Source of the DNA: Candidatus Latescibacterota bacterium
Lineage (GTDB): Bacteria > Latescibacterota > UBA2968
Direction: 5' to 3'
Assembly (NCBI GenBank): GCA_965208125.1
Contig: OZ242320.1
Span: forward strand, 4,096,001-4,160,000
DNA length: 64,000 nucleotides
Shown here: one piece after another, positions 7,959-64,000 of the stretch
Position numbering within the stretch: position 1 is the first letter of the stretch
Layout: each line of letters begins with the position of its first letter
Program-made: the position numbers and the translations under genes
The notes under the pieces: generated by a model
What the model was told of the DNA's origin: nothing
The model's input: only the letters and a program-made list of their open reading frames with translations
Databases searched by the model: none

Positions 7959-9089
7959 CTATCCTCTTTGTTTTTTACCTTTCTTTTCCGCTAAATGTAG
8001 GATTCGATGGACAAAGTCGGTTTTGCCTTCTGTATAACCCTTACCAGATGGGTCTTTCTGTAATAACTCTTCTTTGAGTTTTGCATACTCATCTCTTGCT
8101 TCTTGATTAGATCGCAAAAAGTCGCGGAAAAGGATCTGACGATCCCAAAATCCTCCACGGTCAGTATAGGCAATAGACAGATGGAACTTGACAGGGGTGC
8201 CCTTGGCAAAGAAGTGCCGTTCGGTACTGGATCGGGTGGGGTAGAAATCGTACCCTATTTGAGCAAGGGCTTTTATGAAGCCATCGGCATCTTTGTGATT
8301 TTCAATCTTAACGGCAATATCAATTATCGGTTTCGATGGCAGTTTCTCAATGGATGTACTACCGATATGTTCAATCTCTATAGCTGCCGTACCGAATATA
8401 TCCCAGAGCTTACGTTTTTCCACGTTAAATTCCCGCTTCCAGATTGGCTGATATTGAGACAATTGGATTGGAGTAGAATTATTCATTCTTTGACTCAGCT
8501 TTGATATCCACTCGTGTCCAGGATAGCATAGCTCCAAACATCGTTTTAGCCACGCAGCTTCCTCGTAGTTGAGGAGCGGCAGAGTATTCCTGAAGTCGGC
8601 GTTATTCCGATCGATCTGTAGATTGTTCGCCTTATAGAGAAGCTGAATCTGCGGAGAGAGGTAAGGTATTCCGGATTTGGTTATCCGTCCCAGGAAGGAA
8701 ATTGGCCCGGTGATCTTCGGTTCACGACGGAAAACCCACGAATCCCCGTCTGTTTCCATAAGCATCAATTGGATCGCCCAGGGGGATTCTGGCGTACGGC
8801 GCCCCCAAATGTCATTAATGGGTGGATTCAGGAATTCGCCTTTGGCCCATGTCGTAAACTCTGGCGATCTCCTGTCGCTTAGATCCCAATCAGAAAGGTG
8901 TTCCTGGAATATGAGTTGATCGTCCCTGAGGATCAGGATATCCAGGTCCCCATGAGGACGTGTCTGACGACCGATAAAGAGATCAATGGCCCATCCGCCT
9001 GAAATCCACCACGGTGCGGATAGCCCGGATAATAGCTCTTGTGCCTCCATGGGGGAGAGCGGGTCCCAAACATGAGCGGTTTCTTCCAA
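7959..9089 (-). CDS. Fusion of ANT(2'')/Lnu-like nucleotidyltransferase and GrpB-family nucleotidyltransferase
   Basis: N-terminal WWISGGWAIDLF.G.QTRPHGDLDI; C-terminal IEHIGSTSI..L.SKPIIDI, FRDFLR, Y..LK, YTEGKTDFV. Confidence 0.82.
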   Translation of the reverse strand: MEETAHVWDPLSPMEAQELLSGLSAPWWISGGWAIDLFIGRQTRPHGDLDILILRDDQLIFQEHLSDWDLSDRRSPEFTTWAKGEFLNPPINDIWGRRTPESPWAIQLMLMETDGDSWVFRREPKITGPISFLGRITKSGIPYLSPQIQLLYKANNLQIDRNNADFRNTLPLLNYEEAAWLKRCLELCYPGHEWISKLSQRMNNSTPIQLSQYQPIWKREFNVEKRKLWDIFGTAAIEIEHIGSTSIEKLPSKPIIDIAVKIENHKDADGFIKALAQIGYDFYPTRSSTERHFFAKGTPVKFHLSIAYTDRGGFWDRQILFRDFLRSNQEARDEYAKLKEELLQKDPSGKGYTEGKTDFVHRILHLAEKKGKKQRG

Positions 9090-43642: not shown

Positions 43643-43727
43643 GCCTCTAAACGTTCTCGTTACTTGCGAACTTGCCGAAGGCTAAGACACCAACGGCTTC
43701 ACAGCGCACCACCGTGTTGTTAGCCGA
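43643..43727 (-). repeat. Degenerate/chimeric attC site
   Basis: Minus TCGGCTAACAAC just after the MTase stop ... GCCTTCGGC ... AACG-TTTAGAGGCAAT (core site with an extra T). Confidence 0.6.
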
Positions 43728-47145: not shown

Positions 47146-48048
47146 CTACAGCCTCTTTACGTACGCCGAAGAGACATCACTGATGCGGAATCCAACTCCG
47201 GTATAGAGCGAGACCGCAGCTATGTTGTTTTCGCGGCAGTTCAGAATCACGCGCTCATATCCTTCCTCTTGTGCCTCAGACAGTGCGCGATTGAGTAGAT
47301 AGTGCCCTATGCCTTGCCGTCGGTGCTCCTGATCTACCCCAAGCCATCGCAAGTAACAGCAGGAGGCGAGTTCGTCAAGGTTGGCGTACGCTTGACAACT
47401 GAACATGCGGCATATTCCGATTCTGGAATCACCAGAGAACGCCCTCACGAATATGTTGGGCCGTTCTGCATGTGTCAGGACCTTCTCGACATTCACCCGC
47501 GTTGCGATTGGATCTGGGGTCACTTTTCCTATTCGTCGCTCCAAGGTCAGATGGGCATCGTGGGGTGTGTATCCATTCTCACTGAAAAGTTTGCGGACGT
47601 GGGCGAGTCGATCAGAAAGGACGCCAACCTTATAGTTGTGAAACGAGTATCCGTGATAGAGCGGAAACGCATCGATGTACCCATAGTCCGTTAGCAAGCC
47701 TTCTGCGCTCTCCAGCAACAACTGCCCGACTGCTGGGAAATCTGGTACAAACGCCAGGCAACGGATGATTCCGCATTCGGTGTCTTCGCCACGTACTTCA
47801 GCCGGGCCAGCACAAATGTGCGCGAACCCAACAGGCTCAGCATCGACAGACGCAACAAGCAACTTCTGCTCCCTATCTGTTGCCAGTGACTCGCTGTCTT
47901 CCAGATTTGGTACAAGGCCACTTGCGAAGTCTTCGGGAACAACCGAATAGCTGAAAGGAGCCTTTGCCGTTGATTCCGACCAGACCTCGGAGAGACTACC
48001 TGCACGATACAGGGGCCACTCCTCAATCGTAGGTGAGTGCTTGTCCAT
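47146..48048 (-). CDS. GNAT family acetyltransferase
   Basis: LGVDQEHRRQGIG; N.AAVSLY..VGF. Confidence 0.85.
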   Translation of the reverse strand: MDKHSPTIEEWPLYRAGSLSEVWSESTAKAPFSYSVVPEDFASGLVPNLEDSESLATDREQKLLVASVDAEPVGFAHICAGPAEVRGEDTECGIIRCLAFVPDFPAVGQLLLESAEGLLTDYGYIDAFPLYHGYSFHNYKVGVLSDRLAHVRKLFSENGYTPHDAHLTLERRIGKVTPDPIATRVNVEKVLTHAERPNIFVRAFSGDSRIGICRMFSCQAYANLDELASCCYLRWLGVDQEHRRQGIGHYLLNRALSEAQEEGYERVILNCRENNIAAVSLYTGVGFRISDVSSAYVKRL

Positions 48049-48079
48049 TCACTGTTCTCTCTGCTGTCGATAGGAATGC

Positions 48080-48125
48080 GTTCGGCTAACATTTGGCATC
48101 TGCGACGGCGAAAGTAGTTACGAAC
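48080..48125 (-). repeat. Shortened attC-like site
   Basis: Minus GTTCGTAAC...GTCGCAGATGCCAAAT-GTTAGCCGAAC; ends complementary except for a 2-nt gap. Confidence 0.6.
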
Positions 48126-49574: not shown

Positions 49575-49679
49575 TGGCAGAGGGTGTGGGGATCGAACCC
49601 ATATACGGGATATCCCACAGGATACCCGTAGCCCTCGGTTTGGAAGCCTCGGGGCCAGCACCACTGGCTCTCACCCCCT
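49575..49679 (-). tRNA. Non-canonical tRNA-like gene: 8/4 fold, long variable arm, 8-nt anticodon loop CUUCCAAA
   Basis: Acceptor AGGGGGTG/CACCCTCT+G+CCA; D-arm GCCAG-TGGTG-CTGGC; T-arm TGGG-TTCGATC-CCCA; V-arm TACGGG-TATCC/GGATA-T-CCCGTA. Confidence 0.85.
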
Positions 49680-49792
49680 GCTCAATAATACGACGATGTC
49701 ATAAAATGGAATGTTTCGGATGGGGTAGGGGAGACTACATCTTATTCGTCTCGAATGGGATTTGCATATAGGGATTCATATTCCCTGTCTTT

Positions 49793-50929
49793 CTATGGCG
49801 TGTCGATCCACCAGTGATACACGTTCGTCAAGTGCTGTTCATACGCATGCGACGCCTGCAGCAGCAGCCGATTCCGCTTGTGTGGATTCAGCGATCCGAC
49901 CACGATGCTGTTCGAATATGCTGCGATTCCCTCCTCGCGCATCCTCAAGTAGATGCCGTCATCCCAGGCAAAGCCATCTCGTGAAGCATACAGAACAAAG
50001 TGACCTTTTTCCTCTTTCTTGCCCTGCAAGAATGCACTGCGTCCGTGCATGAAATAACAGCCGTTTAGCACAGCCGTCTGAGGGTTTCGGATCTTCTTTT
50101 TAAAGTGCGCGACCTTCGGGTCGGACCAGGTCCGGCCGCCGTCGTCGCTAACCACATAGTCCATCGTGTGCTCAGCCTTGCTGTTGTATATGTACACAGT
50201 GATACTTCCGTTATCGCGTATCCCCATGGTTCCGTACGATTTCCCGATGGTGTCGAAGGGAAGTTCGCTGCGCTTCACGAACGTCCGGCCGCCGTCTCGG
50301 CTCACGTACAACTCGTACACATCTTCAGGCTTGTTGCCCAGGAAATTGATCTCGTTGTCGTTCTTGAAGTGCAACACGAGTATCTCTCCGTTGTAATACC
50401 GTGCATCGTAGAGCCTACCCCGACTGTCGCACAGTGCAGATGGCTCACTCCATGTGTACCCTCCATCCGGACTGCTGATGTATGTCGGCACCTGAAATTG
50501 CCTCCAAATGACATTGGTCGTGATGTCACACACAAGGAAAAAGAGGACGATTTCACCCTTGTCCGTCCGAACTGCCTTCTCGGCGAAGGCGGACAGTTTT
50601 TTGCTGGTCTTCCCGCTCTGCCCGGTGTCGAACAAGTTCTTCGAATAGGCAACCACGTTCCGATCGCTCCATGTCTCGCCGCCGTCTTCCGAACGCTTGT
50701 ATTCCATCCAGCCCCTGGCCGAGTGGCCCTTGTCAGACTTCTCCGGGTTGTGGCGTTCGGCGGAGCAGTTCGGATAAAAGGCGAGGATCTTCCCGTCTTC
50801 ATACTCTACCAGTGCGTGCCCGAGATTTCCACCTCTTCTTGCCGGGGCGTGATCTACGAAGAGAATCCCATCGTTTGGTGGGTTTTTGGGGGTGATTTCA
50901 TAATCTGCTTTGTTTGGGTTCGCGTCCAT
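49793..50929 (-). CDS. BNR/Asp-box (sialidase-like) protein
   Basis: Five SxDGGxTW-type boxes. Confidence 0.85.
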   Translation of the reverse strand: MDANPNKADYEITPKNPPNDGILFVDHAPARRGGNLGHALVEYEDGKILAFYPNCSAERHNPEKSDKGHSARGWMEYKRSEDGGETWSDRNVVAYSKNLFDTGQSGKTSKKLSAFAEKAVRTDKGEIVLFFLVCDITTNVIWRQFQVPTYISSPDGGYTWSEPSALCDSRGRLYDARYYNGEILVLHFKNDNEINFLGNKPEDVYELYVSRDGGRTFVKRSELPFDTIGKSYGTMGIRDNGSITVYIYNSKAEHTMDYVVSDDGGRTWSDPKVAHFKKKIRNPQTAVLNGCYFMHGRSAFLQGKKEEKGHFVLYASRDGFAWDDGIYLRMREEGIAAYSNSIVVGSLNPHKRNRLLLQASHAYEQHLTNVYHWWIDTP

Positions 50930-50949
50930 AAGTGCTTCCCTGGATGAAT

Positions 50950-52398
50950 TTAAATGCCTTTGTAGATATTGGAGGAGTACATTTCAAAGCCTTCAGGGCC
51001 GGGGTAGCCGTCAAAGAGGTTGCATTCGGGTACATTGCCGGGGGCGCCATTTTTGAGCCAGTCGATGAAGATGGGGTCGGCATTGCGGTGTTTGAGTTCG
51101 GCGAGGCCTGAGGTGTGAAGGTCTTGAACGCGATCAGGATTTTCAGACGCGATATTGGCCAGAGAGCCGTAGGGCGTGAGGATGCTGTCTTCGGGGTTGG
51201 GATGCCATTCGAGATAGCCTTCCTGGTCGAAGACAGTAAAGTAGCCGCGTTGAAGATGTCGCATCGCTTTGCCGCGCGCCACGCCTGATAGGGCGATTTC
51301 GCGGTGGCCCATGCTGTTTTCACGCGCAGCGTTGAGGATGTCGTAACTTTCGATATTGTCGGGAACAGATGCGCCTGATAGGTTGGCGATGGTGGCGAAG
51401 AAATCTTGTGGTTGAAAGATGGCAGAACTGCGACCTGTGTCGCCTTCGGGGGTTTTGATGAAAAGTGGGATGTGGATTTCTTGTTCGCGAACAGGGGCGC
51501 CTTTGCCGAATCTGCCGCGTTCACCGACGTTGGTGCCGTGATCGCCTGCGACGAGTATGGCGGTGTTTTTGGCCAGACCCGTGGCTTCAAGGGCTTCGAG
51601 GAAGCGGCCAAAGCAGTGGTCCATCCAGGTTACTTTGGCTGCATAGCTGGCTTTGATGCGTGCTCTGGCTTCGTCGGGCAGGTTGGGATTGCTGCGGGCT
51701 TGCGTTCCACCCTTGAATATGCGAGGATCGAGCCTACCGTCATAGCCAGGCGTTTTGTCGTATTTGAGCATGAATTCGGGGGGTACGTCCCAGGGTTCGT
51801 GAGGGTCGAAGCAGTCGATCCAGAGGAAGAAATTTTCCCGGTTTTTGTTGTCGCGGAGAAACTCGGCGGCGGTGTTGAAGAGTCTGGCGCAGTTCCAGTC
51901 GTCTAAGTTGTCGCGGCCTCTGTTGGTGCGGGCATATTGTATGGTTGGTGTTGGGAGTTCGTCTTCGAGGATGTCAAAGAGCGGGTCTTTTGCCCAGTTG
52001 CTGGGCCATTTGGCTTCGTCATTTATCCAGGCGCGGTCAACTTCGGCACCGCGAATGAAGGTCCAGGTGTGAAAGGGATAATCGAAGGCGTGACCCCCGT
52101 TGACGAGGTGGGGTGTGTCGTGCAGGAGTTGCGTCGCGTAGCCTGCTTCGCCGAGGACATACGGCAGTGCGTTGGTGTTGAAGGGCAGTGGTTTCCAGGC
52201 GTGAAAGGGGCTGCCGTATTTGCCGGTCATGACGTCGGTGCGATAGGGGATAGTGGGGAAGCTCGCTGCGAAGGCACGGTCAAAACACCAGGATTGTGAG
52301 GATAGGCGGTCGAGATTGGGGGTTTCGATCCAGTCATTTCCGTTGGCACCGATATAGTCGTAGCGCATGGTGTCGATGATTAAGAGAATGATGTTCAT
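50950..52398 (-). CDS. Sulfatase-like hydrolase with Thr at the nucleophile position
   Basis: Start MNIILLIIDTMRYD; TIPYR in place of CxPxR; FDPHEPW, DHG. Confidence 0.85.
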   Translation of the reverse strand: MNIILLIIDTMRYDYIGANGNDWIETPNLDRLSSQSWCFDRAFAASFPTIPYRTDVMTGKYGSPFHAWKPLPFNTNALPYVLGEAGYATQLLHDTPHLVNGGHAFDYPFHTWTFIRGAEVDRAWINDEAKWPSNWAKDPLFDILEDELPTPTIQYARTNRGRDNLDDWNCARLFNTAAEFLRDNKNRENFFLWIDCFDPHEPWDVPPEFMLKYDKTPGYDGRLDPRIFKGGTQARSNPNLPDEARARIKASYAAKVTWMDHCFGRFLEALEATGLAKNTAILVAGDHGTNVGERGRFGKGAPVREQEIHIPLFIKTPEGDTGRSSAIFQPQDFFATIANLSGASVPDNIESYDILNAARENSMGHREIALSGVARGKAMRHLQRGYFTVFDQEGYLEWHPNPEDSILTPYGSLANIASENPDRVQDLHTSGLAELKHRNADPIFIDWLKNGAPGNVPECNLFDGYPGPEGFEMYSSNIYKGI

Positions 52399-52445
52399 TA
52401 TGAATCTCCGAAGACGAATGGACGAATTAAGACCCTTGAGACCAA

Positions 52446-52490
52446 AATAAGCTATAGACCCATTTGTCCCGACACAATAGAAATACATAC
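52446..52490. repeat. Direct repeat A: orphan copy of the 3' end of the GNAT at 53588
   Basis: 45 bp with 4 mismatches versus 53598-53642. Confidence 0.9.
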
Positions 52491-52581
52491 TGATCAGGCT
52501 GCCATTTCTTCATTGCTTTCTCTCGCAGATTTGTTCATATAAACAAGCCATTATTATCTTTTTAAAACAGGAGGTTATCGG

Positions 52582-53587: not shown

Positions 53588-54151
53588 CTAACCACTGAAT
53601 AAGCTGTAGATCCATTTGTCCCGACGCAAGAGAAATACATACCGTTCGGGCAACATGCGGTCCTTAAATTCACCTCTACCCGGTCCGGGCGGTACACGCT
53701 CAGCCTCCTCGAAACCCAGTCGGCGGAGAAGCCGGACAGACCGTTTGTTTGCAATAACGCATCTGGCTCCAATCTCGTCCAGGTCCAAATCTTCAAAACC
53801 CACCTGCAGAATGCTCCGGACAGCTTCTGACGCAAAGCCCTGACCCCAATAAATGGGAGATAACTCGTAGCCTATGTCACCCCGTCGGCTCTCAATACTT
53901 TCTGTGCGTATTCCGCAGTTACCGAGTAATATTCCATTTGAGCGGTCCGTGATGACGAACTGGAATTTGCATCTCGGACTTTCTTTGGACCATGCGATGC
54001 ACTTTTCTACAAATCGGATGCATTCCTCTCTGGTGTAGGCGGGCCGGTAGTAGTATTCCAGATACCTGGGGTCCTTCCTGTACTCGGCGATGGCATCCAC
54101 GTCTTGTCTGGTGAACTCTCTCAGAAGCAGGCGTTCAGTCAGTTTTTCCAT
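53588..54151 (-). CDS. GNAT acetyltransferase, RimJ/RimL type
   Basis: TERLLLR, IGYEL...YWGQGFASEA, N.RS.RLL.RLGF. Confidence 0.9.
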   Translation of the reverse strand: MEKLTERLLLREFTRQDVDAIAEYRKDPRYLEYYYRPAYTREECIRFVEKCIAWSKESPRCKFQFVITDRSNGILLGNCGIRTESIESRRGDIGYELSPIYWGQGFASEAVRSILQVGFEDLDLDEIGARCVIANKRSVRLLRRLGFEEAERVPPGPGRGEFKDRMLPERYVFLLRRDKWIYSLFSG

Positions 54152-55525: not shown

Positions 55526-55602
55526 GAGTACCCCTATGCAAAGATAGGTTTTGTTTTTTCGTTATATACAGTTTTTATATAGTCGGGTTTTCTCTTTATT
55601 TT

Positions 55603-56175
55603 TCAGTCATTCAATGAAATTTTTAAGTTTATCGCTGCCAATAAACCTTCATAGTCAATCGACTTGAAGTCTGTAGTATCAATCTCAAAAATAGAGCCGC
55701 CTATATCCAACGCCTTATACTTTTCATTTATCAGAAATTCGTCGAATTGGTCGGACGTTACCAAATGATCTGTATGGCCGGGATGGCGCTCCCCAGATTC
55801 AGACCGCGCTTTGAATCTCTTAAAGAGCACACCAGCATCGGTTTTGCACAGGATCTGAAATGGCTCAAAGTCATGTCTTTCTTTTAATTCCAGAAGTTTT
55901 GGCGTATCAAACTTGGGAATAAATGCTGTGTCAACAATAAGCGATCTTCCCGCTTCAACTTGAGTTTTCAGGAAACAATGCATAAGCGCCCAACTGGCAT
56001 GGATTAACCCTACACGAAATTCTCTATCTTCCCAGCCAAGGGTATCGAAGAGGACTTCCTTAATGCCATCCTTGCTAAGAAAGGGTAGGCGGAGTTGCTT
56101 AGCCAATTTTCTCCCTAATGTTGTTTTGCCAGTACACGGAGCCCCGTTAATAATAATAAGCAAAGATTTTGTCAT
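55603..56175 (-). CDS. P-loop kinase (AAA_33-like)
   Basis: GAPCTGKTT, LSKD.IKE.LFD, RHPGH. Confidence 0.85.
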   Translation of the reverse strand: MTKSLLIIINGAPCTGKTTLGRKLAKQLRLPFLSKDGIKEVLFDTLGWEDREFRVGLIHASWALMHCFLKTQVEAGRSLIVDTAFIPKFDTPKLLELKERHDFEPFQILCKTDAGVLFKRFKARSESGERHPGHTDHLVTSDQFDEFLINEKYKALDIGGSIFEIDTTDFKSIDYEGLLAAINLKISLND

Positions 56176-56222
56176 TGATGTTTACTCAAAAAATGGGTAG
56201 TTCAGCCATGAGGTTGTTATAC

Positions 56223-56273
56223 GCCGCCAGCCCATGAACCGTCTCTATTCAGATGAATCAATCATCTCTCCTT
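56223..56273. repeat. Direct repeat B: orphan copy of the RBS and first codons of the MFS gene
   Basis: 51 bp with 2 mismatches versus 58210-58260. Confidence 0.92.
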
Positions 56274-56289
56274 CATCGTGCAGACTGTC

Positions 56290-56991
56290 TCAACTGCCGA
56301 CTACCTTATTCTTTCTAAGAATCGGAAATTCGGCACCTTTCATTCCGGTGTCTGTCAAATATGTAAGGTTGCAATGATGATACGCACAGATATAGCTTCT
56401 ACGTAATTTATCAGATGAATTGGAGCCGCTTCTATGTAGAACATGCGAATGAAAAATAGCGATTTCACCTGCGTGCATTTCGATGGGGACCTGATTTTTA
56501 TCATCCACATCTTGCGCGAACCGACCTGCGTAGAATGTTTCCGTTTCTCTCAAGAATACATGATCAAGTCGTCCCCATTTGTGTGAGCCTGGTATCACCC
56601 ATAGACATCCATTGCCGATAGTAACAACATCAAGGGCAACCCAACACGTGATGTAATGTTCCGGCTCTGTCAGACCGTACTGAGCATCTTGATGCCAATG
56701 AAATTCTTTGCCTTGAAACGGAGGTTTATGAGCTATCAAATTCCAATGAAGATCAGCATTGGGCCCAATCAGTTTCTTACAAGCTTCGACAAAGAGAGGT
56801 TGTTTTACGAACTCTGCAAATAGGTCACTCTTCAAATGAGGATTGCGTTGAAACCATTTGGGATTGTCTGCGTTATATTTTTCACATTCCTTTGTCAGCT
56901 TGTCGAGCCACTCACCAGAGACTTTTTGTCCAACAATGCAAAACCCTTTCTCATCAAAGTCACGAAGATTACGGCTGGTTATGATATCCAT
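56290..56991 (-). CDS. PhyH family dioxygenase
   Basis: WHQD, NGCLWVIPGSH, LHRSGSN..RR. Confidence 0.9.
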   Translation of the reverse strand: MDIITSRNLRDFDEKGFCIVGQKVSGEWLDKLTKECEKYNADNPKWFQRNPHLKSDLFAEFVKQPLFVEACKKLIGPNADLHWNLIAHKPPFQGKEFHWHQDAQYGLTEPEHYITCWVALDVVTIGNGCLWVIPGSHKWGRLDHVFLRETETFYAGRFAQDVDDKNQVPIEMHAGEIAIFHSHVLHRSGSNSSDKLRRSYICAYHHCNLTYLTDTGMKGAEFPILRKNKVVGS

Positions 56992-57009
56992 TTTGGTCTT
57001 CCTCCCTGT

Positions 57010-58248
57010 TCAGGATTTTTTGTCTTCGATACTAACAACAGACGGGATCATCCGGGCAGATGTTCCAAGAACGAGGGTCAGTACTCCCGCCGCTAAAAAC
57101 CACGGTTGCGGGCCAAAAACATCGGTTATGGGACCTATCACGATGAGCCCAAGCATAGTTGTAAATTGCACAGAACTATGAAGAGCGCCAAATACGCGGC
57201 CTTGTAGATGGGGATCGACATTGGCCTGAAGGAGAGCGCGGAGAGGCGCGTTAATTAGCGAGCTACCGACGCCGCTTAAAGCTATACCCGTGATGGCTAA
57301 AGCAAAGCGGGTATGAGGGGCGATACCTACGAGTATTGTTCCAATGCCATACACAATCCAGCCTAAGATCGTCGTCATGATTCGGCGATGAAATCCACCC
57401 CAGGCCCCAACCAGAAGACCTCCCAGGACAATGCCCACTCCCCAGGCAGAATTAAACCAACCAAGTTCGGTAGCACCTCCATTGAAGTGATCTGTTATCA
57501 AGAGGGGTGAGATGGTCATCTTCGTGTTCCCAAATATGTTTAATACGGCAGCAATTAAGATTAAGTTCCGAAGACCAGTCCATCTCCACAAATAACGAAA
57601 TCCTTCCAGCATATCAACCCAGATGCCAACCTCCTGGCTTCGCTTTTCCCCCATCCTTTTGGGCTGTGGAATCATAATGAAGATGAGGGGACCGATAGCA
57701 AGCATCGCCGTCAAAACATCGATGGCCAGTATGATATGTATCTCGAACAAGGCCAGTGCCAGTGCTCCAAGGGGAGGCCCTCCCATGCTGAGTACTCCAT
57801 GCAGGGTTTGGTTCGTCCCCTGAATCCTGGCTAGATGTTTTTCGGGCACCATCAGAGGCGTGGAAGTTATCATCGCCAGGCCCTGGAATGCACGACCAAT
57901 ACTCGCCAGAAAGTTTACTGCGTAGATATGCCAGATCTCGATAATTTCCATCCAGAAAAGACCAGCAAGACCAGCCATGGCTATCGCAACAAGCGTGTCC
58001 GAGACGAGCATTACAATACGGCGGTTCCATCTATCGTTCAGTGTGCCTATGATGGGAGCCAAAAAGACTTCTGGTAGATAGGCGACAAGGACTGAGGTCG
58101 CGAGAATGGTCGCAGATCCCGTCTTTTCCGTAAGCCACCACACCAGGGCAAATTGTGCAACTTGGGTTCCAAGAGATGACAGCGTTTGTCCAGTCCAGAT
58201 GGTAAAGAAGCCGCCAGCCCATGAACCGTCTCTGTTCAGACGAATCAA
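57010..58248 (-). CDS. MFS transporter, macrolide-efflux (Mef/DHA3)-like
   Basis: FFTIWTGQ..S.LG....FALVWWLT..TGSA; DRWNRR; QGRVF. Confidence 0.9.
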   Translation of the reverse strand: MIRLNRDGSWAGGFFTIWTGQTLSSLGTQVAQFALVWWLTEKTGSATILATSVLVAYLPEVFLAPIIGTLNDRWNRRIVMLVSDTLVAIAMAGLAGLFWMEIIEIWHIYAVNFLASIGRAFQGLAMITSTPLMVPEKHLARIQGTNQTLHGVLSMGGPPLGALALALFEIHIILAIDVLTAMLAIGPLIFIMIPQPKRMGEKRSQEVGIWVDMLEGFRYLWRWTGLRNLILIAAVLNIFGNTKMTISPLLITDHFNGGATELGWFNSAWGVGIVLGGLLVGAWGGFHRRIMTTILGWIVYGIGTILVGIAPHTRFALAITGIALSGVGSSLINAPLRALLQANVDPHLQGRVFGALHSSVQFTTMLGLIVIGPITDVFGPQPWFLAAGVLTLVLGTSARMIPSVVSIEDKKS

Positions 58249-58833
58249 TCATCTCTCCTTTTGACCTGAATCGGCAAGAAAGAACGTTCCCCTCTTTTTG
58301 AACCGAAAATTCTCATCGGGTACGATGAACGCCAGTTTATCGCATAAAAAAGAGCCAGACGGGGCTGAATTTTGGAGCCGTGCACAAAGCTCAAGGCTCT
58401 CGTCTATGGATATGAATTCAGCAATGGTCATGTGCGGAGCTATGTTGCGCCGGTGATACGCTTCGTCGGAAAATGCCGATGTTCCGTGGAGGACCTGCTT
58501 TAAATTATCGATAGGCTCTCGTGGCCTTATAGGATACGAGACGCCAGGGTGCCTGGTTGAGGCATGCAGCTTGTCGTAATAAAGCGTGAATGGCTGGACA
58601 TCAGTAATGACGTTGTTGATTTCATCGATAAGATCAGGCGTCATTTCCTGGCTCAAGGGATCTGACAAAGAGATGTGCGTCGGACAGGTGGCAGCAGAGC
58701 GGGGATCATACTTTGCTCGCAAGAGATCGATCTCCTGAGATACCTCTGGAAGGGGCATGATAAGGATGAGGCCTAATCGGTAGTCGCGTTGCCAATCTTC
58801 CCACTTTGATGTGTCTTTTACGTATGGAATCAT
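58249..58833 (-). CDS. 2H phosphoesterase (2'-5' RNA ligase-like) protein
   Basis: Two HxS/T motifs: THIS and PHMT. Confidence 0.82.
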   Translation of the reverse strand: MIPYVKDTSKWEDWQRDYRLGLILIMPLPEVSQEIDLLRAKYDPRSAATCPTHISLSDPLSQEMTPDLIDEINNVITDVQPFTLYYDKLHASTRHPGVSYPIRPREPIDNLKQVLHGTSAFSDEAYHRRNIAPHMTIAEFISIDESLELCARLQNSAPSGSFLCDKLAFIVPDENFRFKKRGTFFLADSGQKER

Positions 58834-58842
58834 GATGGACTC

Positions 58843-59013
58843 TCAGTCGCTGTGGACCCGCAAGCATTCGCCTAACAGAAAATCCAAAGCCCACCCTCCA
58901 CCCAACCAGTGCGGAATAGAATGAACTGTCAATACCTCATGAATCTCTCTGATCAGCCCAAGCTGGATGGGGTTCGGATCTTCCAGACATCCACGAATTA
59001 CAATTTTAGACAT
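58843..59013 (-). pseudogene. 5' stub of an ANT(2'')/Lnu-like nucleotidyltransferase
   Basis: MSKIVIRG...HWLGGGWALDFLLGECLRVHSD*, truncated inside the HxDxD motif. Confidence 0.75.
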
Positions 59014-59032
59014 GGATCAAACTCATAGGAAA

Positions 59033-59062
59033 CATGCCGCTTCAGAACACTGAAGCGGCATG
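59033..59062. terminator. Perfect 13-bp hairpin right after the GNAT stop
   Basis: CATGCCGCTTCAG-AACA-CTGAAGCGGCATG. Confidence 0.6.
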
Positions 59063-59066
59063 AAGG

Positions 59067-59996
59067 CTAACTTCTTCGAGTTAAGAAAAAAATACCCGGC
59101 TTCGGTTTATAACCCATTTTTCGATTTACAGCAAGTATTCGTTCATTATTGGAATCATTGTGTGTTCGCAAATATTTAGCACCTTGATTTTTTGCAAATT
59201 CAGCAGCTTTCACTTTTGCAGCAAGCGATAATCCCTTTCCGCGGTAGGGGCGACTGACACCTGTCAAGCTGTTGTAATAAACTTCCTCAGTTTCCCTGAT
59301 TACTAATGACATTGCCACCCATTTCTGGCCATCGAGAATTAAGATGCTACCCGCGGGATCCATTTTCTCGAATAATACGTTCCTCATTTGTTTTAATTCG
59401 GGACGTGATTTTTCTTCCATACCTGGTGCATCTTTGGCCAGTTCCCACCAAAAGTCAAGATACCTTTCAAACCATACATCATTCTGTGGATAATTAGCAA
59501 AGGATGAAAAATGGAGTTTGGAACTTAGAGACAATACATCATCAAAGTTTTGGGAATTAAAAGTAGATAAATCCAGAGTGGATTCAAATACATGCTGTTC
59601 TACATTGAACCCACGCTTTTTTGCCCACATAAGGTCTTCAGGGCTTTGTTCCCTAACTGAACCTTGGAGGGCGACAGCTTGATTTTGGGTAGAGAAATGT
59701 TCAAGTTCCTGGTAGATTTTGCTTCCAATACCTTGTTTTCGCCAGTTTTGAGTGACTCTCACAGATATTTCAAAATAGCCAGGTCGCAGAATCGGATCCC
59801 AGGGACCTGTCACTGCGAAACCAAAACCAACAATTTCTCCATCAGGAGTGATAGCTGCAATACGATATATCGCCGTATCTTCTGTACACTTGCGATCTTG
59901 AGAAAGGAGGGTATTGAGGCTGGGCATATCAGGCCCATGTTTGCTGACAATGTGAGAGAAATTGCCCGATGTTATTGGCATGATTTGTATTGGCAT
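59067..59996 (-). CDS. Tandem-domain GNAT acetyltransferase
   Basis: WRKQGIGS; TGVSRPYRGKGL..A.K; THNDS.N..ILAVN.KMGY. Confidence 0.9.
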   Translation of the reverse strand: MPIQIMPITSGNFSHIVSKHGPDMPSLNTLLSQDRKCTEDTAIYRIAAITPDGEIVGFGFAVTGPWDPILRPGYFEISVRVTQNWRKQGIGSKIYQELEHFSTQNQAVALQGSVREQSPEDLMWAKKRGFNVEQHVFESTLDLSTFNSQNFDDVLSLSSKLHFSSFANYPQNDVWFERYLDFWWELAKDAPGMEEKSRPELKQMRNVLFEKMDPAGSILILDGQKWVAMSLVIRETEEVYYNSLTGVSRPYRGKGLSLAAKVKAAEFAKNQGAKYLRTHNDSNNERILAVNRKMGYKPKPGIFFLTRRS

Positions 59997-60006
59997 TTAG
60001 AAATCC

Positions 60007-60555
60007 TTAGCCCGTATGATGCCTGGACTCAAATTCTGCGCGCAATATCCCGAATAAGAGCCTATCCCAGCGTCGGTTGGACCAATATATAGCCTCGCGC
60101 TCGCACCCTTCCTGAGTAAATCCGAGTTTCTCGAGAACTCGGATGGCACCCGTATTATTGGAGGCTGTCGCAGCCGAAATCCTGTACAAGTCTAAATGCT
60201 CAAATCCAAATCGAAGGATTACCAATGCGGCATCTGTGCAGTACCCCTTACCTCTATCCCTCCTGCGGGCAATGCCAGCACCGAGGCTGGCGGTACGATT
60301 TCTTAAGTCGATTTCCGACAACTGAATATCTCCAAGGAGATTGCCATCTGGACTGAAGATGCCTAAATAAATTTGACTCTTTCCTTGTTGCTCCTGGATT
60401 TCCTCGAACCATTTGTCCGATCCCTCGAGTGAATGACCGGGTCTGACTGGTTCTGTAGGTATTGGCTCCTCGAGCTCATAATGTTCCCAAAGGGTGCGGC
60501 AATGCTCGCGTTCCATTGTCCGCAGTACCACTTTTTTACCACGTAGCTCAATCAT
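60007..60555 (-). CDS. GNAT acetyltransferase, RimJ/RimL type
   Basis: RGKGY.TDA...L.FGF..L.L.RI; N.GAIRVLEKLGF..EG. Confidence 0.9.
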   Translation of the reverse strand: MIELRGKKVVLRTMEREHCRTLWEHYELEEPIPTEPVRPGHSLEGSDKWFEEIQEQQGKSQIYLGIFSPDGNLLGDIQLSEIDLRNRTASLGAGIARRRDRGKGYCTDAALVILRFGFEHLDLYRISAATASNNTGAIRVLEKLGFTQEGCEREAIYWSNRRWDRLLFGILRAEFESRHHTG

Positions 60556-60581
60556 GAGAGGGATCCCCGATTTAGTTCAAA

Positions 60582-60615
60582 CATCGTGCAGACTGTCTCA
60601 ATTACCGACTACCTT
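60582..60615. repeat. Direct repeat C: orphan copy of the 3' end and trailer of the PhyH gene at 56290
   Basis: 34 bp with 2 mismatches versus 56274-56307. Confidence 0.9.
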
Positions 60616-60623
60616 TCAAAAAA

Positions 60624-61397
60624 TCACAGTTTCTTGCCTATCGCGCAGAAGACATTGTCATAGGATTCGCCCAGATCCGAGGCGCGAAATATGTGGATGT
60701 CCTGGAACCCGGCTGCTAAGTACAGGTTCTGGACTTCCTTCTCGTCAAAATAGTGCCAAAAGACCGGGCCCTCCCCGTCCTCGCTCTTGAGAACTAAGTC
60801 ACCTTCTTCCAGGCCTTCGTTCTGGTCAATCCCCTCGTATCTCATGTCATCGGTAACACGGGGGAGTGTAGAGGCACCATCGTGAACCGAAAGGGACATA
60901 AGTCCGGCAGAGGTGAGAACTCGAAAGGCTTCACTCGCGAGGGTCTTGCGAGCTCGCGCAGTGGGGACGTTGGCAAGAACCTGACTCCATAAAGTAACTA
61001 TGTCATATGAATCATCCGGTTCTGAAAATATGGCTCCATCTGTAACTTCAAACTCGACCTGGCTACCGGATTCAGCGGCTATACTTCGGGCCGCTGAAAC
61101 AAGCGTATCGGATATGTCTATTCCCTTCACGCGAAAGCCCAGACTTTCAAGGGCAAAGGCTTCACGTCCAGCGCCACATCCTACGACCAGAGCACGGCCG
61201 ACATCCGGAAAGAATCGGTCAAACATGGCCTGTTCCCATCTGCGCAGTCCTTCGCTGACCCTCCGTACGTACTTCTCAGTTGCCTGAGCAGTAGAGTAGC
61301 TATGTCGTACCTGACGGGCCAAATCACTTTTCTTTTTTTTATTCACTTTTTGCAATCGAGTATATAAGATTGAAAATAAATACCTTACAAGAAACAT
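60624..61397 (-). CDS. Class I SAM-dependent methyltransferase (true start probably ~61346)
   Basis: LVVGCGAGREA, GIDIS. Confidence 0.85.
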   Translation of the reverse strand: MFLVRYLFSILYTRLQKVNKKKKSDLARQVRHSYSTAQATEKYVRRVSEGLRRWEQAMFDRFFPDVGRALVVGCGAGREAFALESLGFRVKGIDISDTLVSAARSIAAESGSQVEFEVTDGAIFSEPDDSYDIVTLWSQVLANVPTARARKTLASEAFRVLTSAGLMSLSVHDGASTLPRVTDDMRYEGIDQNEGLEEGDLVLKSEDGEGPVFWHYFDEKEVQNLYLAAGFQDIHIFRASDLGESYDNVFCAIGKKL

Positions 61398-61400
61398 TGC

Positions 61401-61429
61401 TTGATGCTAAATTGAAAACCAACTATATT
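61401..61429 (+). promoter_or_regulatory. Putative sigma70 promoter of the LamG gene
   Basis: TTGATG-17 bp-TATATT. Confidence 0.45.
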
Positions 61430-61526
61430 CTCTTACATCTCATTAGAGATAGACTACTACCGTTTTGTTTCATGCTTGGCTTAAGAGTCCTCAGCTATTT
61501 TAAACTGCCCAAACCGAGGAGAAATT

Positions 61527-63137
61527 ATGTTGCGAGTCAGCGACCCCGACCTGATCGCCCACTGGCCGTTCCAGGAAAACCTGAATGACCATTCCAAAAG
61601 CGGCCTGTCCATCCAAAATCACGGGGTTGAAATCGGGGAATCAGGCGGACAAAGAAGCGCCCAATTCGACGGGGAGGGAACCTTTATAGAAGTTCCCTGC
61701 GACCTGTCTATAGGGACAGGCGATTTTTCATGCGCCGGATGGATCTATACGGAAGAAACTGAAGTGGTCGGCGATATTCTCAGCCAATTCGATCCGGAAA
61801 CCCGCCAGGGATGGCAGGTCTCGGTCCTCACCAATACCGGCATGACCTCCACCGCCCAATCGAATTACCGCAACCTCCACTTCGGCATCGACAACGGACA
61901 TCTCGGGGCCTGGACGGATTGCGGGCGTCCCGGTCAGGCGGTCAAGGTATCTGCACTTTCAACAATAGGTGGATACCTGTACGCTGGCACCTTCGAGAAC
62001 GGCAAAGAAGAGGTCGGCCACCTGTGGCGCTATGAAGGGGAGAAACGCTGGACCGATCTGGGCAATCCAGTCGGATGCAACTCCGTCAACGCCGTCGTCG
62101 AATTTCAAGGCGCGCTCTACTGCGCTCTTGGCCGGTATAATAGCATCGGCTCCGCTCTGGGCGATCCCCTGAACACCACCCCCGGCGGCCAGGTCTATCG
62201 GGTTGATGCTGATGGTCAATGGACTTTCTGTGGGCATCCAGGTATCGAAGACGCCACACCCGAAGAAACACCTACCACGGGGCACAACACGGGCAAAGCC
62301 GATAACGCCACCGCCCTCACAGTTTATCAGGGTCGGCTCTACGCCACCAGCCTCTATCGCGAGGGGGCCTTTGTCTATGATGGCGGCACCACCTGGACGC
62401 CCATAGGTCCAGACGTGCGGCTGATGAGTTTCACCATCTATCGGGATCGGCTCTATACCCTCGTCAACGGCGGCCCGGTTCTTCGCTACGAAGGCGGCGT
62501 CGAATGGACCGACTGCGGTTGCCCCGAAACTTCTACCCAGACCTACTCGGCGGTCACTTTTGAGGGCCAGCTTTATGTCGGCACCTGGCCTCAGGGAGAA
62601 GTCTATCGATATGACGGCAATACGACCTGGACCTGTCTGGGCCGGGTCGGATACGAACGCGAAATCATGGCCATGGGACTTTACAACGGCAAGGTCTATA
62701 TTGGCTCGCTCCCAATGGCCAATGTCTGGCGGATGGATGGTAATCAGTTCACATTCCTGGCGTCTCTGGACAGCACGTCTGCGCCCTTGCGGCGGGTCTG
62801 GTCCATGGCCGTTTATCAGGGCCGCCTCTATGCTGGCACCCTGCCGTCTGGGCATGTCTATTCAGTCGAAGCCGGAAAAGTCGCCACCTGGGACCACACA
62901 TTTCCCGAAGGGTGGCGACACGTAGCCGCTGTCAAGCAAGGCGGTGTTCTGACCCTGTACGTCGATGGAATTCCCGTCGCTACAACAGACAGCTTCAATC
63001 CAAAACGCTACGACCTCAACCCCAACTGTCCCCTCTTAATCGGCTTTGGTACCCACGACTATTTCAAAGGCGCCCTGCGAGACATCCGTATCTATCGCCG
63101 GGGCCTCACACAACGGGAAATCCAGCGCCTTCAGTGA
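61527..63137 (+). CDS. LamG/ConA-like domain interrupted by a beta-propeller
   Basis: N-terminal LIAHWPF...FDG...DFS..GWI; central G.LY.GT repeats; C-terminal WRHVAAV..LYVDG..FKG.L.D.RIY.R.L. Confidence 0.78.
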   Translation: MLRVSDPDLIAHWPFQENLNDHSKSGLSIQNHGVEIGESGGQRSAQFDGEGTFIEVPCDLSIGTGDFSCAGWIYTEETEVVGDILSQFDPETRQGWQVSVLTNTGMTSTAQSNYRNLHFGIDNGHLGAWTDCGRPGQAVKVSALSTIGGYLYAGTFENGKEEVGHLWRYEGEKRWTDLGNPVGCNSVNAVVEFQGALYCALGRYNSIGSALGDPLNTTPGGQVYRVDADGQWTFCGHPGIEDATPEETPTTGHNTGKADNATALTVYQGRLYATSLYREGAFVYDGGTTWTPIGPDVRLMSFTIYRDRLYTLVNGGPVLRYEGGVEWTDCGCPETSTQTYSAVTFEGQLYVGTWPQGEVYRYDGNTTWTCLGRVGYEREIMAMGLYNGKVYIGSLPMANVWRMDGNQFTFLASLDSTSAPLRRVWSMAVYQGRLYAGTLPSGHVYSVEAGKVATWDHTFPEGWRHVAAVKQGGVLTLYVDGIPVATTDSFNPKRYDLNPNCPLLIGFGTHDYFKGALRDIRIYRRGLTQREIQRLQ

Positions 63138-64000
63138 CGGCTCTTCAGCCACCAGCGCATGGTATTACTGACCATATCCGCTGCGTCTCGTTGAACCCAA
63201 TGGCCGCTGCTGGGGATGGTGACGAGTGTGTAGTCTTTGTTGATCCAATTCCACGTGTCGCGTAACCCGTCTTTGTCAACAGCCTTGTCTTTCAACCCGT
63301 GGAATTGCAATACGGGCATGGTGAGATTGGGCATCTCCAGGCTCTGGCCAGACCCCGCAGTTAGACCGCTATAGGCCGCCCGGTAGTAGTCGAGCATGCC
63401 CTTGACCGAGGATTGGGAGAACGCATTGATGTAGCGCTGCCGCACTTCGTCTGAGGCATTACCCACCGAAATACGTGTAAGCACCTCGGGCGAGAACCGT
63501 TTTTCGTATCCAGGCGTTTGAAAGTCGGTAATGTATTGCGTATTCCTCTTTTGCTCTGCCGTCGCGTTACGCAGCACGGTGCCGTAGCCCTTCGGGTGAG
63601 TCAGATTGCAGATCACCAGCTTGTTGACGAGTTGCGGATAGTGCATGGCGAACCGCCACGAAATGGCGCCACCCCAATCGTGACCAACGAGGGTGACCGA
63701 GTCGACCTCCAGATCCTTGATCACAGCTTCGACATCCGACATGAGATGGGACATGGTGTAGTGTTTCACGCCTTCGGGCTTGCCGCTCTTGTTGTAGGCG
63801 CGTGTGTCCATAGCGACGGTCTTATAGTTGTCGGAAAGAGCGGCCATCTGTTCGCGCCAGGTATACCAAAAATCGGGAAAGCCATGGACAAAGAGAATAA
63901 CGGGGCCTTCGCCCAAGGTGACGTAGTGGAGTGCCACCCCGTCGTTATCCGTCTCATGGTGCTCGACGCGGTCGAATACATCCGCCTTGACGTTAGCTAT
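63131..64000 (-). CDS. Alpha/beta hydrolase, epoxide-hydrolase-like; 5' end lies off the right edge
   Basis: HGFP, GHDWGG, GHWVQ; frame stays open to 64000 (IANVKADVFDRVEHH...). Confidence 0.88.
   Translation of the reverse strand: MANVKADVFDRVEHHETDNDGVALHYVTLGEGPVILFVHGFPDFWYTWREQMAALSDNYKTVAMDTRAYNKSGKPEGVKHYTMSHLMSDVEAVIKDLEVDSVTLVGHDWGGAISWRFAMHYPQLVNKLVICNLTHPKGYGTVLRNATAEQKRNTQYITDFQTPGYEKRFSPEVLTRISVGNASDEVRQRYINAFSQSSVKGMLDYYRAAYSGLTAGSGQSLEMPNLTMPVLQFHGLKDKAVDKDGLRDTWNWINKDYTLVTIPSSGHWVQRDAADMVSNTMRWWLKSRH

Follow-up and report, generated by a model that had tools for sequence, protein, structure and literature searches.

Flexible, or hypervariable, genomic islands carry variable content at a fixed chromosomal position. 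An array of this general kind was analysed in a stretch of 64,000 nucleotides (nt) from the genome of a Candidatus Latescibacterota bacterium (assembly GCA_965208125.1, contig OZ242320.1, G000:C1:4096001-4160000, hereafter the window), a genome assembled as one contig of 5.75 Mb. The analysis concerned two short direct repeats, B and C, which lie side by side at one place in the window and enclose a 2.3-kb block of genes at another. The repeats are interpreted as scars of a segmental duplication and of later deletions within a hypervariable array in which genes for small modifying enzymes and transporters are packed much as in an operon, and the joint at which C abuts B (the C/B joint) as a derived product of loss and not as a virgin target site, a reading given a probability of roughly one half. 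The array resembles flexible islands in that both flanks, with BNR/sulfatase and Laminin_G/hydrolase respectively, are conserved, and in a content that ranges from ~1 kb in one related genome (G009) to ~16 kb in another (G015). Unlike in such islands, no integrase or tRNA-linked integration module was identified; all that lies at one edge is a tRNA-Sec-like gene.

Sedentary chromosomal integron arrays are similar in holding small, mostly promoterless accessory genes of similar kinds on the same strand, with a content that varies between related species. The present array differs from them in that no attC was found between its genes, as searched with a narrow model, and no attI or integrase at the array; most spacers are too short for an attC, and the stubs and internal deletions indicate breakpoints that are not site-specific. 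The block also recalls cut-and-paste transposons and cargo resembling miniature inverted-repeat transposable elements (MITEs), as a 15-nt imperfect inverted repeat lies exactly at its ends and block-free sequence exists. Unlike those elements it has no target duplication and no transposase, its inverted repeat is a single pair in the genome, and the arms consist of ordinary gene and spacer sequence.

The tailed phages offer a further comparison. For their genomes PMC3029335 describes one-gene modules in varying orders with joints near gene boundaries; past recombination is marked by 3' gene ends of ~50 bp that occur as repeats, and illegitimate recombination followed by the survival of functional joints is the favoured explanation. 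As far as that account goes (PMC3029335), the array shares with phage mosaics the reordering of single-gene modules, the joints near gene boundaries and the short repeated gene ends as scars. It is unlike them in lying in a bacterial chromosome between conserved flanks, on one strand, with operon-like packing and frequent gene stubs. No prior description of this array was found in a narrow literature search.

Repeats B and C and the enclosed block

A direct-repeat search of the window gave two copies of B, at 56223-56273 and 58210-58260 (51 nt, 49/51 identical, 96%), and two of C, at 56274-56307 and 60582-60615 (34 nt, 32/34 identical, 94%); the second copies are termed B' and C'. The first copies are contiguous over 56223-56307 with neither gap nor overlap, while B' and C' are separated by the 2321 nt of 58261-60581. 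BLAST against the whole 5.75-Mb genome revealed no further copy of B or C (E of 1.5e-15 and 2.5e-6, respectively), and with copies that are unique at such low E values neither chance nor a dispersed repeat explains them. All genes here lie on the minus strand, in the order MT1, C', GNATa, GNATb, hairpin, ANT fragment, 2H, B'-MFS, PhyH, C/B, kinase, MT2, NUDIX and GNATc. Read on that strand, C comprises the last five codons of PhyH, its stop and 16 nt downstream, and B the Shine-Dalgarno sequence AAGGAGAG and the first 13 codons of the MFS gene, which starts with TTG at 58248. As in a segmental duplication, the direct repeats are thus truncated copies of nearby full genes, B of the MFS 5' end and C' of the PhyH 3' end, with the full genes lying between them.

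The C/B joint reads CACGATG/AAGGAGAG, without an extra or a missing base. No direct repeat was found at the ends of the 2321-nt block, and no microhomology was seen at C/TTTG or CAA/AAGG. The 2H open reading frame (ORF; 58249-58833) terminates within B' as AAG GAG AGA TGA. This geometry had been described in the original prediction, which was made from the window alone. The abutting first copies and the exact distance between the second ones were confirmed by the repeat search and BLAST, the claim that the target had been neither duplicated nor shortened agrees with the lack of a direct repeat at the block ends, and the 2H gene does take its final codons from the repeat, namely the last three and the stop. 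The gene labels given there were all recovered with Pfam (Acetyltransf_3, a two-domain GNAT, an Aminoglyc_resit fragment, 2_5_RNA_ligase2, MFS_1/MFS_3 and PhyH).

Block edges and the C/B joint in related genomes

A 131-nt query across the C/B joint was compared with 53 genomes of the order, and the contiguous joint was found in this genome only (0/52 others). Exact-pattern scans of metagenome contigs, one for C/B and one for the PhyH end followed by C, gave 0 matches each, exact matching making this a weak negative. Contigs of four sequencing runs were also compared with the window. One contig of 1971 nt from the sponge-metagenome run X5 covers 55600-56995 unbroken, with 26 differences and one 3-nt gap (~98%); in the same data set MT1 is joined straight to 2H (58843/60624). 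In a contig of run X7 the kinase and its 47-nt leader are accompanied by no more than the distal 31 nt of B, beyond which the sequence is unrelated. The joint between MFS stub and kinase is present there without C/B and is therefore older than, or independent of, the C/B joint.

The two edges of the block recur more widely. In G008 a complete PhyH ends in C (34/34 identical to the C of the window) and continues without break into TTTGAACTAAATCGGGGATCC...ATG of GNATa, and the same joint between C of PhyH and the GNATa leader was found in a contig of run X7. At the opposite edge, 2H runs into B and a full MFS gene in six genomes (that of the window, G015, G008, G013, G017 and G003). As judged from these alignments, both edges of the supposed insert are shown to be old joints. 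Five contexts were found upstream of the MFS start: 2H in the six genomes; the end of GNATa with a GNATc stub in G012; the end of GNATa with other DNA in G004 and G014; a promoter-like region in G006, in G026 (from another family) and in X7; and PhyH-C, seen solely at the stub in the window. All five diverge within 1-3 nt of AAGGAGAG.

The position of C' is occupied by full genes in G008, where the order is MT1-GNATe-PhyH-C-GNATa with GNATe and PhyH complete, as expected of a relative after segmental duplication and later loss. In the window MT1 is followed by a GNATe remnant of 13-14 nt, GTGATTTTTTGAA, and then by C'. With the remnant beside C' and the full GNATe-PhyH pair at that place in G008, C' is the leftover of a deletion of GNATe and PhyH. 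G015 has the order 2H-MFS-PhyH of the window. Its PhyH stop is succeeded by the same 6 nt as in C, GACAGT, which lead into the final 15 nt of GNATa and the spacer that belongs downstream of GNATa; contigs of runs X1 and X2 are alike. A 3' stub of GNATa behind this PhyH means that GNATa formerly stood behind that PhyH too. The 18-nt spacer between MFS and PhyH in the window resembles the end of the 88-nt spacer of G015, the first part of which is MFS 3' flank common to G026, and on this similarity it looks like a deleted form of the longer spacer. The B stub carries the majority allele of the other species, and B' an allele common to G026.

Among the 12 array loci compared, none has the block twice in full. 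G015 carries 2H twice and, besides GNATa, a stub of that gene, and G019 has a 5.1-kb tandem duplication of other modules.

The array between its flanks

Parts of the region were matched in 30 of 41 genomes, that of the window included (40 relatives were searched at the DNA level), and the arrays were compared by means of a map of 12 array loci. The flanks at 49790-52490 (BNR, sulfatase) and 61363-64000 (Laminin_G, hydrolase) are 88-98% identical in G015, G008, G017, G009 and others. Between them the same genes recur at 88-97% identity in varying order and number, so that the array behaves across species as a hypervariable island does. The four genes of the block (GNATa, GNATb, ANT and 2H) were found separately in other contexts. 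Relatives show internal deletions (MFS in G008, GNATb in G019), the duplications of 2H and of the 5.1-kb segment mentioned above, and stubs: an MFS 5' stub after 2H in G014, MT1 5' stubs in G004, G014 and G002, and GNATc 3' stubs in six genomes. Outside the array, the genome of the window carries no close paralogs of these genes.

Homology between the window and its relatives breaks mostly near genes' edges. Between 52400 and 61420, 71 of 126 homology ends lay no more than 12 nt from an ORF start or stop, where random placement predicts 6.1%; the genomes are related and BLAST ends approximate, with leaders often sharing 5-13 nt more. The wider idea of the original prediction, that joints fall at gene edges, holds in this form. 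A stricter reading of the modules as ORF-exact cassettes was softened, since BLAST ends understate the shared leaders by that amount. A further 23/126 ends lay more than 60 nt inside genes, and the array is also rich in stubs from such joints. Of the 10 spacers between 53.5 and 61.4 kb, seven measure 0-53 nt and the other three 68, 77 and 114 nt. The clustering of joints at ORF edges is attributed to the persistence of only those joints that spare both neighbours, and to the shortness of the spacers.

Inverted repeat at the breakpoints

The block is bounded by a 15-nt inverted repeat with 13/15 matches, TTTGACCTGAATCGG at 58260-58274 and, on the other strand, TTTGAACTAAATCGG at 60567-60581. 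The right arm stops exactly at the breakpoint, and the left arm has one base in common with B. A match of at least 12/14 with two bases of slack was obtained for 1 in 20000 random pairs at the same spacing. In G008 the same two arms enclose a different content, GNATa-MT2-2H. The right arm, in the GNATa leader, is present in 2/21 genomes of the genus, both at this same joint, and the arm in the 2H coding end occurs unpaired in five other contexts. The motif is not enriched in the genome, where it was matched 48 times and the reversed control 33 times, nor does it form another pair of close matches; the sole other pair within 8 kb consists of the same right arm and a 2-mismatch site inside MT2. 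A role of the motif as a general junction site was considered and rejected, with 4 matches in the window against 1.84 expected and other insertions and deletions lacking terminal inverted repeats. The inverted repeat may have helped the block to loop out precisely and be lost, or it may be the mark of a unit that was inserted once, at whose ends it would lie.

Origin of the C/B joint

The repeats, the stubs and the old edges of the block lead to a proposal that includes a duplication, an order of events and, possibly, a part of the inverted repeat in the loss. The older arrangement would have been PhyH-C-GNATa-...-2H-B-MFS, as in G008. Duplication of that block, or of a longer one, would have placed a second PhyH-C behind the MFS gene, as in G015. 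The lineage of this genome would then have lost the first PhyH and the GNAT gene preceding it, down to C', and the second copy would have lost its GNATa-to-2H block exactly between C and the ribosome-binding site of the MFS gene, giving C/B, after which the second MFS gene would have been shortened to 51 nt. Loss is favoured because both block edges are shared old joints, because the four genes of the block act as separate modules elsewhere, because G015 has a GNATa remnant behind its second PhyH, and because deletions that leave stubs are common here. It is also favoured because deletions need no special machinery, and a 2.3-kb insertion without machinery would be a rarer type of event.

Several points weigh against this proposal. 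The polarity is not proven, as precisely excised and virgin sites are identical in sequence. Among the 12 array loci no relative carries both full copies of the block. The kinase-B-C-PhyH order is present in the second data set, X5, so the C/B joint did not occur just once; no C' was seen in X5, where the leader in front of GNATa is of the GNATe type. The form found in G015 could be obtained from a window-like array by unequal crossing-over between C' and C. Loss needs a deletion with both ends at, or no more than 6 nt from, two module joints. The inverted repeat flush with both ends shows that the block ends are not arbitrary, and it fits the terminal repeats of an inserted unit as well. Finally, the alleles of B and B' may point to two MFS copies of different origin, brought together for example by exchange between strains.

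The rival model of insertion follows the original prediction in taking the C/B joint as ancestral. In this model a PhyH-C/B-MFS unit was tandemly duplicated, GNATa-GNATb-ANT-2H entered the first copy exactly after C and before the ribosome-binding site, perhaps as trans-mobilised cargo that ends in 15-nt inverted repeats, and the second copy kept the empty site. A duplication placing a second PhyH-C behind MFS is required by insertion and loss alike. Insertion would account for the exact junction, in which bases were neither lost nor duplicated, and for an inverted repeat of a quality reached by so few random pairs that is flush with the block ends and surrounds other content in G008. It is also compatible with the recovery of C/B in X5, and the order C'...B'-MFS-PhyH-C-B suits a tandem PhyH-MFS unit. 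However, no transposase or recombinase was detected in the block with Pfam, whose coding content is limited to the two GNATs, the ANT fragment and 2H, and there is no target-site duplication; of the marks of a transposon or MITE only the terminal inverted repeats were found, neither a transposase nor several copies being present. The arms are ordinary sequence that occurs unpaired elsewhere, of a motif that is not enriched, and the leader arm is confined to the one joint in its two genomes. The order PhyH to MFS without the insert, which the original prediction proposed to look for in relatives, was not found as a full PhyH-C/B-MFS in any of the 52 genomes or in the two exact metagenome scans. 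The MFS gene has a different, promoter-like upstream region in G006, G026 and X7, and G015 would require an additional event. Insertion is accordingly judged possible but doubtful. What remains of the earlier scheme is the reduction of one copy of each gene to a stub, as C' beside the GNATe remnant illustrates, with duplication as the simplest frame; C/B as a retained ancestral junction that new genes entered is not supported, in view of the age of both edges (G008 and X7 for one, 2H-MFS in six genomes for the other) and of the lack of C/B in all 52 other genomes. Nor is the joint the best clue to how the array grows, since sister genomes show change mainly by duplication, deletion and re-joining of existing genes.

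A bolder form of insertion would see the GNATa-to-2H block as a non-autonomous cargo unit with 15-nt inverted repeats that enters and leaves without target duplication directly before a ribosome-binding site or, more generally, the array as free of attC and as rebuilt at the edges of its genes by a recombination activity so far unrecognised, alongside an integron-like system in the same genome; this is regarded as distinctly improbable. An exchange between strains is improbable as well. In that case the part with C/B and the kinase and the part from C' to B'-MFS would derive from different parental arrays recombined in shared genes, with no duplication in place. It would agree with the B and B' alleles, each common to other species, with a C that is identical to G008 where C' differs, with modules about as divergent as the flanks (93-97%) and with the direct junction of MT1 and 2H in X5, which lacks C'. 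An earlier event forming C/B would still be needed, though, the coincidence of the breakpoints with the inverted repeat would be left unexplained, and the differences (4 in 85 nt) are too few to tell the two origins apart. An assembly chimera is unlikely, and only a slight chance is given to the repeats of 34 and 51 nt having joined co-occurring strains artificially. Like its closest named relatives, the genome is most likely a metagenome-assembled one, from a habitat with several co-occurring species of the genus, as many contigs of differing identity indicate, and the share of sampled words found in any one sequencing run was at most 0.38. Against this, the assembly consists of one 5.75-Mb contig, long reads greatly exceed in length the repeats of 34-51 nt (94-96% identity), and the joints recur: kinase-B-C-PhyH in X5, C-GNATa in G008 and X7, 2H-B-MFS in five other genomes and MFS-PhyH in G015. 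The MT1-C' joint has as its sole outside support an X7 contig across 60617.

An integron-type cassette array, or an attC cluster without integrase, into which the block entered by recombination of attC with attI or another attC, can hardly be the explanation. The contents (GNATs, methyltransferases, glyoxalase, NUDIX and, elsewhere in the window, toxin genes) are typical of chromosomal integron cassettes, and the same genome has attC-like hairpin sites, four of which were confirmed in its integron-like region, and a Xer/IntI-like recombinase 172-208 kb beyond the window. Weak attC-model matches were obtained at 43643-43725 (+, 15.5 bits) and 48044-48125 (+, 10.6 bits). At 55-61 kb, however, no attC-model match was found (best 8.6 bits, E 2.9), a weak negative as the model, R1, is narrow, having been built from 4 sites of this genome and finding only those 4 in their own region. 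An attC measures about 55 nt or more, and seven of the ten spacers, at 53 nt or less, are too short for one. No core of the GTTRRRY type was seen at C/B. The IntI model TIGR02249 gave its best scores in the whole genome, 103.9 and 97.5 bits against a cut-off of 265, in one 315-amino acid (aa) frame 208 kb from the window; no recombinase was found among the Pfam matches of the window ORFs scanned. The array genes are without close paralogs in the integron region. Neither an IntI near the array nor an attC with a GTTRRRY joint after each cassette was thus found, and, within the limits of the narrow model, the array is not one of cassettes bounded by attC. The repeats recovered by self-BLAST of the integron region were too few for sites to be defined, and two regular-expression attC scans failed their positive control, the genome's own integron region, and were not used as evidence. 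Both weak matches lie in longer spacers between array genes, where they may be decayed attC sites, and the one at 43643-43725 is also found beside an MFS gene in G003.

Features of the locus

The features of the locus are given in Table 1. No origin could be recognised for the 47 nt that separate B from the kinase start. A scan for sigma-70 promoters and terminators gave fewer sites than shuffled sequence and was uninformative on operon structure save for the hairpin of the table. The N-terminal ANT(2'') piece recurs at 7959-9089 of the window, fused to a GrpB domain (376 aa), and the PhyH protein has 56 tblastn matches in the genome.

Table 1. Coordinates of the features around repeats B and C in the window.
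Feature	Position	Strand	Remarks
Repeat B, MFS stub: Shine-Dalgarno sequence AAGGAGAG and 13 codons, then GTA TAA	56223..56273	-	49/51 to B'
Repeat C, PhyH 3' end and 16 nt	56274..56307	-	34/34 identical to G008
Full-length PhyH dioxygenase, 233 aa	56290..56991	-	Pfam PF05721, E 2.4e-36; 96-97% to G008 and G015
MFS-PhyH spacer, 18 nt	56992..57009	-	Resembles last ~20 nt of the 88-nt spacer of G015
Full-length MFS transporter, 412 aa, TTG start	57010..58248	-	Pfam MFS_1/MFS_3
Repeat B', Shine-Dalgarno sequence and start of functional MFS gene	58210..58260	-	Homology to five upstream contexts breaks 1-3 nt from its 5' end
2H phosphoesterase; last 3 codons and stop in B'	58249..58833	-	Pfam 2_5_RNA_ligase2; tail different in each other context
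Inverted repeat left arm TTTGACCTGAATCGG, within 2H 3' end	58260..58274	+	
ANT(2'')-type N-terminal fragment, 56 aa	58843..59013	-	Pfam PF10706 (Aminoglyc_resit), profile positions 2-37 of 149
Terminator-like hairpin, 13-bp stem, 3' of GNATb	59033..59062	-	
GNATb two-domain acetyltransferase, 309 aa	59067..59996	-	Pfam; twice in G019, with internal deletion
GNATa acetyltransferase, 182 aa	60007..60555	-	Pfam Acetyltransf_3; at least 4 different leaders in relatives
Inverted repeat right arm TTTGAACTAAATCGG, in PhyH-GNATa spacer	60567..60581	-	
Repeat C', 3' stub of deleted PhyH copy	60582..60615	-	32/34 to C
GNATe 3'-end remnant GTGATTTTTTGAA; provides MT1 stop codon	60616..60628	-	GNATe complete between MT1 and PhyH in G008
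MT1 methyltransferase, first gene behind shared upstream region 61398-61526	60624..61397	-	
AAA_33 kinase gene (55603-56175) and 47-nt leader 3' of B stub	55603..56222	-	Run X7: leader with only distal 31 nt of B

Most of the 64 kb consists of small genes of the modifying-enzyme type on the same strand (GNATs, S-adenosylmethionine methyltransferases, beta-lactamase-fold proteins, AAC(3), glyoxalase, PhyH, MazF and PIN), a run broken by sulfatase, fucosidase and planctomycete-type DUF1552/PSD genes. The region upstream of MT1 (61342-61503) recurs up to four times within the arrays of relatives, with four copies in G006, sometimes together with a 56-nt MT1 5' stub, and the arrays seem to be made of several units, each headed by a copy of the same upstream region. 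Independent MFS 5' stubs were found at least three times, in the window together with X5, in X7 (on window 56177-56253) and in G014 (L019 ~8170-8270, a stub with an internal deletion); deletions seem to begin repeatedly just inside the MFS gene. In G019 the tandem copies hold GNATb with the same internal deletion at L016 10140-10718 and 15277-15855, 5.1 kb apart, and are recent.

A second pair of stubs is formed by a 54-nt copy (87%) of the GNATc 3' end, at 52446-52499 and 53598-53651. The copy sits before the sulfatase gene, whose longest ORF begins with it, and the 1098 nt between the two copies hold a GH32/GH130-like gene on the opposite strand. In G009 GNATc directly abuts the sulfatase gene, with the 54 nt common to both. 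No RNA genes were detected in the window by ARAGORN or by Rfam at gathering thresholds. The tRNA-Sec-like gene at 49578-49680 (-) scored 34.6 bits with Rfam RF01852, for which the gathering score is 47, and received no call from ARAGORN. It has a long acceptor stem and an anticodon loop of 8 nt (CUUCCAAA), and a similar tRNA-like sequence, near G000 2974575-2974700, shares its 3' 26 nt at 92%. The tRNA-Sec-like element directly adjoins the end of the array in G012 and G013.

Implications for the array

The array changes mainly by the duplication, deletion and re-joining of genes that it already holds, and datable stubs remain from these events. The seemingly empty site may itself have arisen by loss, which warns against taking pairs of stubs as insertion sites. 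A small oddity that can be tested is the inverted repeat, which lies flush with the breakpoints. The locus is a well-resolved case in which genes are shuffled one at a time in the absence of integron sites, in the Latescibacterota, an uncultured phylum associated with sponges.

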